From Candidatus Bathyarchaeota archaeon (GTDB taxonomy: Archaea > Thermoproteota > Bathyarchaeia > 40CM-2-53-6): a stretch of 64,000 nt of DNA. Below are positions 47,215 through 49,294 of the stretch, piece by piece (position 1 is the stretch's first letter; the number at the start of each line of letters is the position of its first letter). The notes below the pieces were generated by a model. That model was not told the DNA's origin. It worked only from the letters and a program-made list of their open reading frames with translations, and made no database searches. A program made the translations under genes and the position numbers. Location of the stretch: contig CAVSBL010000002.1 of NCBI GenBank assembly GCA_963726255.1, positions 1,760,001-1,824,000 of the forward strand, in the 5' to 3' direction.

Positions 47215-47912
47215 AGAGACAGCCACGTCGAGGCGGACGCATACATGCGATAGTTCCTGTGAATGTTCTTAGGAAGTCCAAGGCTCGCCTTTCCCCACTA
47301 CTGAACCCTGTCGAGAGGGAGCAGTTAACTGTCGCAATGTTGAAGGACGTTCTCAGCGCCTTGAGAAAGGCGAAGAGGATTCATTCCGTAACAGTTGTGA
47401 GCGCCGATACGAGCGTGCGTAGAATTTGCAGGCGTTACGGGGCCAGTTTTCTATGGGAGGGGAAGCGGCGCGGCCTCAATAGGGGTGTCAAATTAGCTGT
47501 TAGTAATTCTGAACGAAGGGGCGCCTTGTCCGTCCTCGTGATTCATTCGGACCTTCCACTTCTCAAATCTTTGGAAATTGACATGTTCCTTAGGCGGTCC
47601 CAAGGGTACTCTGTGGCGCTCACCCCTTCCAAAGACCGCAACGGAACCAACGCCCTGCTCATGACTCCCCCCCATGTCATCCGCCCGGTTTTTGGGAGAG
47701 ACAGCTTCCGAAGGCACCTACGGCTTGCTAGGCAGAGGAACGTACGAAGCAAGGTGTTGCGGTTCAAGGGAATTGGCTTCGATGTTGACACGCCCCGTGA
47801 TCTCGTTCACTTAATGCATGTGCCGTTGCGAAATGAGTCAGGCCGATTCCTGCGGGCATTTCGCGAACGGGTCAGTGAATTACTGAGAGGTATTCAGGGC
47901 AAAGGAATTTAG
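47211..47912 (+). CDS. cofC: 2-phospho-L-lactate/phosphoenolpyruvate guanylyltransferase
   Basis: IVPV....KARLS..L...ER..L...ML.DVL, GLN, SDLPLL, GTNAL, FG.DSF..H and DVDTP.DL. Confidence 0.92.
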   Translation: MKRQPRRGGRIHAIVPVNVLRKSKARLSPLLNPVEREQLTVAMLKDVLSALRKAKRIHSVTVVSADTSVRRICRRYGASFLWEGKRRGLNRGVKLAVSNSERRGALSVLVIHSDLPLLKSLEIDMFLRRSQGYSVALTPSKDRNGTNALLMTPPHVIRPVFGRDSFRRHLRLARQRNVRSKVLRFKGIGFDVDTPRDLVHLMHVPLRNESGRFLRAFRERVSELLRGIQGKGI

Positions 47913-47937
47913 ATGCAGCTGGCTGTGCTTGGTTGGG

Positions 47938-49294
47938 GTGTTTGGTTTAACATCGCCTAAGGAAAGCCACGATAAAGTGCTGCAACTGCTTGAGCAGCAT
48001 CATAAGTGGTTTTCAGAATCGATTCCGTTGATCGCATCGGAGAACGTTCCCAGCCCCGCGGTTCGCGAAGCTATCGTTTCGGATTTCGGGAACCGTTACG
48101 CGGAATAGGCCTAAGCCGAGCTTAGGCCTCCGTAGGGATGGGTCGGGGAACGCATATACGCGGGCTGCGTATACATCGACCAGGTTGAGAGGCTCTGCAT
48201 AGACCTAGCAAAGGAACTATTCCACGCTGAATTCGCGGACGTTAGGCCCGTCTCTGGAGTTTGCGCAAACCTAGTGGTTTACACCACCTTCACAAACCCA
48301 GGCGACCGCATGCTCACTTTAGCCATACCGAACGGCGGCCACATCTCGAGTGGGCGGAAGGATTTCTCGGGAACTGCGGGCTCGGTCCACGGCTTGGAGG
48401 TAGAGTACTTTCCCTTTGACCGTCACGAAATGAACATCGACGTGGACAAGGCCAAAGCCAAGATCGAGAAGATGGCGAAGGAGGAAAACGAACCGCCCAA
48501 ACTTGGAATGTTCGGGGGAAGCCTCTTCCTCTTTCCGCAGCCTATCAAAGAGCTCGCCGAGTCATTACATAATGTTGGTGCAACCGTCGCCTATGATGCA
48601 GCGCATGTTGCCGGGCTCATTGCCGGAGGCATCTTCCAAGACCCGCTCAGGGAAGGCGCTGATGTAGTATGCCTGAGCACCCATAAGACGCTCTTCGGCC
48701 CGCAAGGAGGCGCGGTACTCTCCTTCGAAAAGTACGGAGCAAATCAAGAAGGCAACTTTTCCATCAAACACGAGCAACCACCACCTGCATCACCTAGCTG
48801 GAAAAGCGGTTGCTTTCGCGGAAATGTTAGAATTCGGAAAACAGTACGCTCGGCAAGTCGTGGCCAACGCCAAAGCCTTGGGCCAAGCGTTGCATGAACG
48901 GGGCTTTGCCCTACTGGGCGAGCACAAAGGTTTCACTGAGTCGCATCAAATCGCAGTTGACGTATCCAAGTTCGCTTTGGGCGGAGATATGGAAAGAGCA
49001 CTTGAAAGCGCCAACATAATCGTCAACCGCCAACTACTCCCCGGCGACATACAGGCCGGAAGGCACTACCAAAACCCAGGGGGCATACGCATCGGGACCT
49101 CGGAAATCACCCGCCTCGGGATGAAAGAAAACGAAATGGTGGAAGTAGCTGAGCTAATCAAACGAATCGTGATCGACAAGCAGGATCCAAAGAAAATCAA
49201 AGCCGACGTAACAGAGTTCAGAAAAGATTTCCAGAAGGTTCACTACTGCTTCGAAAACGCAAAGAAAGCCTACGAATACATCAGAATACGTTAG
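47938..49294 (+). CDS. glyA: Serine hydroxymethyltransferase, interrupted by a 30-nt putative intron and one frameshift
   Basis: LIASENVPS, NRYAE|GWVGERIYAGC, SGVCAN, GGHISS, YDAAHVAGLIAGG, STHKTLFGPQGG, FPSNTSNHHLH and GIRIGTSEITRLG. Frameshift at about 48736. Confidence 0.93.
48106..48135 (+). other. Putative bulge-helix-bulge mRNA intron in glyA
   Basis: TAGGCCTAAGCCGAGCTTAGGCCTCCGTAG carries three in-frame stops. It has a 10-bp inner stem, two 3-nt bulges and a 4-bp central helix; removal restores YAE-GW. Confidence 0.85.

Follow-up and report, generated by a model that had tools for sequence, protein, structure and literature searches.

Our analysis identifies a 30-nucleotide insert in glyA, the serine hydroxymethyltransferase (SHMT) gene of an uncultured Candidatus Bathyarchaeota archaeon, as very probably a bulge-helix-bulge (BHB) intron that is removed from the mRNA by the tRNA-splicing machinery. 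The gene lies in the 64,000-nucleotide stretch of DNA analyzed here, which we refer to as the window (genome G000, contig C2, positions 1760001-1824000); positions are window positions unless a contig label is given. Comparison with relatives supports this reading, and the splicing itself is predicted. The cell most likely must splice its glyA mRNA with tRNA-splicing enzymes before it can make SHMT.

A stop-bearing insert at a conserved junction of glyA

The SHMT-family gene occupies the plus strand from about 47929 to 49294. An earlier note made from the letters of this DNA, hereafter the original prediction, described a frame that reads to ...NRYAE, is broken by 30 nucleotides containing TAG, TAA and TAG, and resumes in frame, and the sequence and its translation confirm that description: 48106-48135 translates as stop-A-stop-AELRPP-stop, and the same frame continues after it with GWVGERIYAGC. 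The insert falls between adjacent positions 50 and 51 of the Pfam SHMT model. Because the sequence upstream covers model positions 4-50 and the sequence downstream takes up the model at 51-243, excising the 30 nucleotides costs no residue. The start codon of the gene is uncertain (TTG at 47929 or GTG at 47938), and the first exon is 72-100% identical to those of 26 orthologous loci over 46-49 aligned residues. The features of the locus are as follows.

47929..48105, plus strand: glyA (SHMT) exon 1, about 59 codons with last residues ...NRYAE, within an open reading frame (ORF) at 47929..48108; Pfam SHMT model positions 4-50
48093..48099, plus strand: 5' strand of the outer helix; C48099 pairs with G48137, and CCGU at 48093-96 may pair with AUGG at 48138-41 across a 2-nucleotide interruption
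48100..48103, plus strand: GCGG, 5' strand of the central helix, an Ala codon and the first base of a Glu codon; pairs with 48130-48133
48104..48106, plus strand: 5' bulge AAU; predicted cut 48105/48106
48106..48135, plus strand: predicted BHB intron of 30 nucleotides with in-frame TAG, TAA and TAG; same-site inserts in relatives; single copy in the genome
48107..48129, plus strand: inner hairpin, a perfect 10-bp stem of 48107-16 with 48120-29 (A48107-C48116 with G48120-U48129) closed by the 3-nucleotide loop CGA at 48117-19
48130..48133, plus strand: CCGU, 3' strand of the central helix, intron bases; one G-U among the four pairs with GCGG
48134..48136, plus strand: 3' bulge AGG; predicted cut 48135/48136
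48136..49294, plus strand: glyA exon 2, beginning GWVGERIYAGC and running to the stop codon; Pfam SHMT model positions 51-243 and 265-399
48137..48141, plus strand: 3' strand of the outer helix, exon 2 bases
48734..48735, plus strand: 2-base (CG) assembly deletion that causes a frameshift in glyA exon 2; all 16 aligned relatives, and a contig of DNA run X1, are two bases longer at this point

Every pairing and both bulges of the originally proposed fold (the 10-bp stem, GCGG/CCGU, AAU, AGG and C48099-G48137) are present in the sequence. Excising 30 nucleotides after 48103, 48104 or 48105 yields the identical ...YAEGW, so the protein alone cannot fix the cut. PMC2738675 states for cbf5 that the splicing endonuclease EndA cuts between the second and third bulge residues, and this rule picks 48105/48106 and 48135/48136. 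Applied here, it would excise exactly 48106-48135, as had been proposed, and join SHMT position 50 to 51 in frame, with the rule, not the protein, setting the register. The hairpin core is its own sole occurrence in the window and was matched in 0 of 100 shuffles, and the intron is single-copy, with no detectable sequence relative elsewhere in the genome. Its 5' part also has a 15-nucleotide exact match at C2:468734, within an ordinary ORF, which we set aside as chance. Rfam returned no family at E ≤ 1 for positions 47800-48400.

Relatives carry inserts at the same site

We searched 40 relatives with the Pfam SHMT model, and many of them break at model position 50/51 or show in-frame stops there. 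The junction was extracted from 25 orthologous loci, a set that leaves out a paralog (L001), a duplicate (L003, of L002) and loci of a distant SHMT type that is 33-37% identical (L004-L009). An insert of 25-34 nucleotides sits exactly at the Glu/Gly boundary in 13 of the 25 and is absent from 12. Scanning one genome per species contributed 80 further loci, 14 with an insert and 66 with none, and once duplicates were dropped there were 19 distinct intron-bearing sequences, with inserts of 25-39 nucleotides. A pattern scan gave 38 matches (16 in glyA and 22 chance matches in bacterial contigs), among them three new glyA cases, for a total of 22 distinct relatives. Within the window's genus the break occurs in 13 genomes including this one, and an uninterrupted ortholog is found in two (G016 and G019). 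A covariance model built from the alignment was run on 151 genomes sampled evenly across the class and matched 6: this genome, all three genomes of family f8 and two of three of family f7. The 11 genomes that represent other genera in the window's family gave no match.

The BHB geometry, two 3-nucleotide bulges on opposite strands with a 4-bp helix, is kept in all 19 distinct sequences. All four central pairs form in 16 of them and three of four in the remaining 3, and the BHB-rule cut joins SHMT position 50 to 51 in frame in every one.

Two other loci turned up in these comparisons. The glyA of G019 breaks at model positions 240/260 (contig C17, about 1949-1964), and we rejected this as an intron; it is a G-run frameshift and probably an assembly error. 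L120 (G002:C22:35000-37776) is a truncated, intron-less SHMT fragment of 127 amino acids, about 85% identical to genus members, which alters conserved residues (YVE for YAE, YADC for YAGC) and could be a decaying copy or a mis-joined contig.

The 19 inserts measure 25, 29, 30 (four sequences), 31 (two), 32 (five), 33 (two), 34 (three) and 39 nucleotides. Of these inserts, 12 have lengths that are not divisible by 3, and the remaining 7 all carry an in-frame stop, so the insert cannot be translated through. These lengths bear on whether the ribosome might cross the 30 nucleotides, either by bypassing them in the manner of T4 gene 60 or by reading through the stops, a notion that we regard as extremely improbable. 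Bypassing in T4 gene 60 features a stop after the last sense codon, a stable hairpin that starts the gap, and matching take-off and landing codons. The glyA insert does have a stop codon directly after the last sense codon and a stable hairpin at the start of the gap, but it has no matching landing codon: take-off would be from GAA, but reading would resume behind UAG in this gene and behind UAU, CAG, CAC, UUG, UUU, CAA, CAU or UUA in relatives. Reading through could not work at all for the 12 inserts with lengths not divisible by 3. The feature that is conserved is the exon-intron BHB pairing, which bypassing does not need.

Compensatory changes and codon constraint

To evaluate pairing we took the structure of the original prediction, an alignment of 18 sequences, and controls in which the pairing partners were slid. 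Standard pairs make up 86.2% of cells, compared with 31.9-46.5% in the slid controls, and 42 cells changed on both sides, compared with 6-13. The covariation score is 0.430, against 0.050-0.149 in the slid controls, and was reached by 0 of 500 shuffles. Changes on both sides occur at 11 of 16 pairs, including 10 of 10 in the inner helix, and 95.8% of central-helix cells are paired. In the central helix, the third base of the Ala codon takes part in the third pair, for which 15 sequences have GC, 2 have CG and 1 has AU; a synonymous codon position thus covaries with an intron base. The equivalent of the outer pair C48099-G48137 is C-G in all 18. Aligning glyA from relatives had been suggested as a check on the intron, and it revealed both variation in the presence of the insert and compensatory changes in the central and inner helices.

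Around the junction, constraint on synonymous codons is seen only in genes that have the intron. The Tyr codon is TAC in 19 of 19 genes with the intron and 31 of 70 without it, and the Ala codon is GCG in 16 of 19 versus 12 of 70; the sequences are related to each other, which makes these counts descriptive rather than a test. For exon 2, the ratio of nonsynonymous to synonymous change (dN/dS) is 0.034-0.082 against five intron-bearing orthologs, the unsaturated pairs; in five more pairs synonymous sites are saturated (proportion of synonymous differences, pS, 0.75-0.83) and the nonsynonymous proportion, pN, is only 0.08-0.10. Exon 1 is conserved along with exon 2. These comparisons indicate that the exons are functional and under strong purifying selection.

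Splicing enzymes and a second intron in the genome

Two ORFs of the EndA family, 188 and 187 amino acids long and each with both EndA domains (PF01974 and PF02778), lie at about 748.2-748.8 kb (minus strand) and 1451.4-1452.0 kb (plus strand) of G000:C2. One of them passes the endA equivalog cut-off (TIGR00324, 90.9 bits) and is closest to PDB chains 3p1z_B, 3ajv_B, 2cv8_A and 2zyz_B (E 8e-41 to 4e-28), which we take to be crenarchaeal subunits from enzymes of the two-subunit form. The second ORF diverges more; it aligns with the N-terminal unit in enzymes made of two units and gives weak alignments to models of the beta subunit. The two proteins probably make up an (alpha-beta)2-type two-subunit enzyme, and PMC10485636 links this enzyme form to relaxed BHB motifs and to cbf5 splicing. 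One RtcB gene is present (571 bits). ARAGORN, run with introns allowed, found 30 tRNA genes and called an intron in 26 of them at varied positions, though its archaeal intron calls are rough. That only 30 tRNA genes were found suggests an intron-rich tRNA set in which some genes are too disrupted for detection.

Taken with the predicted fold, these genes allow a pathway to be proposed. The glyA transcript would include the 30 nucleotides, and GCGG of exon 1 (48100-03) would pair with CCGU of the intron (48130-33) as the 4-bp central helix. Two 3-nucleotide bulges would flank this helix, with the 10-bp intron hairpin inside and a weak exon-exon helix outside. The splicing endonuclease, probably of the two-subunit form, would cut behind the second base of each bulge, at 48105/48106 and 48135/48136, and RtcB would then ligate the exons and probably circularize the intron. 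The product would be an open frame reading ...NRYAE-GWVGER...; left unspliced, the mRNA would stop at the UAG directly after Glu59.

Ligation, like cleavage, is predicted here, and EndA might instead cut the BHB without any re-joining, either as a cleavage or decay switch for the glyA mRNA or to give two separately used fragments. There is a precedent in that yeast TSEN cleaves mRNAs without splicing them, according to PMC10485636. We consider the cut-only explanation improbable. The first in-frame start codon of exon 2 lies 46 codons past the junction, the junction restores the conserved YAEGW with no residue gained or lost in all 19 sequences, RtcB is encoded, and exon 1 is conserved together with exon 2.

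The original prediction also held that this lineage may carry more tiny mRNA introns, and here the outcome was divided. In the same genome, the Asp codon of the cbf5 GGTLD motif, presumably encoding the catalytic Asp, is split by a 19-nucleotide BHB insert (G000:C2:296552-296570), the classic mRNA intron of archaea. Its bulges are AGA and UAA, its central helix is CCCU/GGGG and its inner helix is GAC/GUC. Beyond glyA and cbf5, a genome scan for BHB motifs yielded no convincing case among its 31 final candidates, which were judged by eye, with the other 29 taken without a family search. The scan demanded strict 3-nucleotide bulges, a 4-bp helix, at least 3 inner and at least 1 outer pairs, an insert of 12-130 nucleotides and at least 60 open codons on each side, settings that would miss relaxed motifs and introns near gene ends. 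It produced 4653 raw candidates, mostly noise, which filters for coding potential and for the lack of a start codon reduced to the 31. The compact top candidates at C2:493709, 587900, 841293 and 1051706 are ordinary gene starts, and the 29 filtered candidates other than glyA and cbf5 look like gene boundaries or homopolymer frameshifts.

Some of these frame breaks are small gene-breaking indel errors. They include a G-run frameshift in an acyl-CoA dehydrogenase-like gene (C2:720312-720373) and breaks in an ABC ATPase at G000:C1:5918-6027 and C5:4899-5008. As the assembly carries gene-breaking indels, apparent pseudogenes of this genome need to be checked against reads. Identical scan candidates also recur between C1 and C5 and, twice, between C3 and C2 (1159279-1159382 and 1163029-1163152). 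The small contigs C1, C3 and C5 therefore duplicate one another or parts of the large contig, and this duplication may add to the genome's 9.3% 'contamination' figure.

Assembly errors, the paralog and the pseudogene explanation

Indel errors of this sort would favor explaining the 30 nucleotides as an artefact of assembly or of a chimera. DNA run X1, which covers this DNA best and is probably its source sample, was compared as contigs. Its contigs cover 48088-48134 at a summed depth of 31.5 and none omits the 30 nucleotides, contrary to what had been named as grounds for dismissing the intron. One X1 contig contains a joint from 48105 to 48317; it comes from a divergent relative and was set aside. 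With homologous inserts also found in independent assemblies of many species, an artefact has next to no probability.

The same run accounts for a second lesion in the gene. In the assembly, exon 2 is read in two frames because of the 2-base deletion: CG is missing after 48734 in this genome alone, compared with all 16 relatives aligned. An X1 contig over 48346-48757 has CG behind 48734 and otherwise no differing letters, at a depth of 11.1 of 11.1. Since the 16 relatives have two more bases here and the error-free X1 contig carries CG, the frameshift is an assembly error and not real, and the homopolymer frameshifts elsewhere in this assembly agree with that.

A divergent SHMT-family paralog (L001) with an intact 428-amino-acid open frame lies at G000:C2:208335-209381 on the minus strand. 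It is 44% identical to glyA exon 2 over 192 residues and reads NRYTSHEHYYMGTRY where glyA has NRYAEGWVGERIYAGC, and a counterpart stands alongside the intron-bearing gene in at least 9 relatives. Its low identity and its co-existence with intron-bearing glyA in many relatives indicate that L001 is an old paralog and not a fresh replacement copy.

These observations speak to the possibility that glyA is a decaying pseudogene, into which a small palindromic element was inserted while the paralog at C2:208335-209381 took over the function. At face value the assembly lends itself to this, with two lesions (the stop-bearing insert and the frameshift) and an intact second SHMT-family ORF of 428 amino acids. 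The frameshift, however, is absent from the error-free contig of the probable source run. The insert occurs at the same site in 19 distinct sequences, the exon dN/dS of 0.03-0.08 gave no sign of relaxed selection, and the insert is single-copy and belongs to no repeat family. The paralog is too distant, at 44% over 192 residues, and too regularly found beside the intron-bearing gene (at least 9 relatives) to suit the role of a successor. The pseudogene explanation is thus largely refuted and, in our judgment, very improbable; the pairing of an intact second glyA with accumulating lesions, which together with a lack of EndA cleavage had been named as grounds against the intron, dissolves into an old paralog and an assembly error.

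Weighing the evidence for tRNA-type splicing

The dependence of glyA on tRNA-type splicing, the central proposal of the original prediction, is supported by the same-site inserts, the compensatory changes, the constraint on the exons and the presence of EndA and RtcB genes. Several observations weigh against it. By nearest-neighbor energies the minimum free energy fold (-28.8 kcal/mol) is more stable than the BHB conformation (-21.7 kcal/mol), and it is in a shifted register with only one 3-nucleotide bulge. The local fold z-score is modest at -2.27, and 5 of 200 shuffles were equally stable. Fold energy does not single out the BHB, and fold prediction alone would have missed it. The outer helix in this genome is one contiguous base pair; its extension sits in conserved codons, which makes conservation of the extension uninformative. 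The innermost central pair is mismatched in 3 of the 18 aligned sequences (3 of all 19). In three metatranscriptome runs no contig bridges the junction, spliced or unspliced: RNA contigs end at 48094 or 48101 and resume at 48155, leaving 48102-48154 uncovered. Finally, with L001 present, the cell might not need to depend on this glyA copy alone.

Evolution of the intron

For the history of the intron we built a quick gene tree from a 248-residue piece of 94 distinct SHMT sequences, of which 19 have the intron and 75 lack it; many forks of the tree are weak. Presence or absence of the intron must change at least 7 times on this tree, and well-supported branches force 5 of these changes, while shuffled labels need 17.5 on average. 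Most intron-bearing genes fall in one clade, the window's genus, where 13 of 15 members have the intron and the two intron-less members form a single sub-clade, a pattern that would fit one loss. Isolated carriers elsewhere adjoin intron-less neighbors, and several carriers are in metagenome-assembled genomes (MAGs) labelled Nitrososphaeria, Thaumarchaeota or Methylarchaceae. The insert is at the identical phosphodiester bond in three Bathyarchaeia families. From the tree, either an old intron would have been lost many times or it would have been gained repeatedly at the same bond.

The introns of L024, L026, L058 and L153 share the start AAGCUU... and a similar end. Their hosts are Bathyarchaeia of family f8 and a MAG whose SHMT groups with Nitrososphaerales, and these shared features hint at a common origin of the intron across distant hosts.

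It is conceivable, if rather unlikely, that the glyA mini-intron is mobile, returning to a single conserved exon site with no homing endonuclease involved. Around glyA, the ORFs in the 1.6 kb upstream are CofD and CofC genes and those in the 1.4 kb downstream are short-chain dehydrogenase and GNAT acetyltransferase genes, in a survey that made no dedicated search for homing endonucleases. If some of the gains were independent, BHB introns would spread site-specifically into protein genes. This could come about if the EndA/RtcB reaction ran backward and reverse transcription followed, or through gene conversion in which transferred alleles are the donors.

Discussion

Among known systems, the glyA intron most resembles the BHB intron that Desulfurococcales and Sulfolobales carry in their cbf5 pre-mRNA (Watanabe 2002; Yoshinari 2006; cited through PMC2738675 and PMC10485636), and it was for cbf5 that a relaxed BHB motif was described (PMC10485636). 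The cbf5 intron shares with that of glyA a relaxed BHB motif in which the predicted cuts separate the second bulge residue from the third, an association with a hetero-oligomeric, two-subunit EndA (for the glyA host, read from its genes), and lineage-specific presence and loss. The two differ in that glyA encodes a core metabolic enzyme and not an RNA-modification enzyme, and that the carriers of its intron are Bathyarchaeia and some MAGs labelled Nitrososphaeria, recovered from metagenomes of peat, soil and sediment. The cbf5 cDNAs were sequenced, whereas splicing of glyA is predicted here from comparison of DNA sequences. The distribution in glyA also differs, as its gene tree calls for no fewer than 7 events of gain or loss.

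Other archaeal BHB substrates are less similar. The HVO_1309 mRNA of Haloferax volcanii, like that of glyA, is an archaeal mRNA with a BHB and is processed by the splicing endonuclease, according to PMC10485636, but it is another gene and is served by another form of the enzyme (alpha2). The BHB introns of archaeal pre-tRNAs and pre-rRNAs have the same motif and, by inference, would use the same enzymes, EndA and RtcB. The exons of glyA differ from theirs in being coding, so that helix strands double as codons and synonymous codons come under constraint.

A 2023 review gives two archaeal genes, cbf5 and HVO_1309, as spliced by the tRNA endonuclease and considers further discoveries likely (PMC10485636), and according to PMC2738675 introns in protein genes other than cbf5 had so far only been predicted. 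A literature search, outside of which lay supplements and subscription journals, found no paper linking SHMT or glyA with a BHB intron; the sole co-mention was an unrelated cancer review. glyA is a new host gene, in a new lineage, for a known kind of intron.

glyA would be the first gene for a metabolic housekeeping enzyme found with a BHB intron, and this in an abundant uncultured lineage of soils and sediments. Since the same exon bases work as codons and as strands of the helices, the comparative evidence is unusually clean. A glyA of this kind would come out of gene calling split or truncated, and 386-amino-acid open frames that start inside exon 2 do appear in relatives, so metabolic reconstructions could wrongly score SHMT as missing or broken. 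Together, the intron-bearing and intron-less orthologs provide a natural series on the gain and loss of BHB introns and on the substrate range of the two-subunit EndA.

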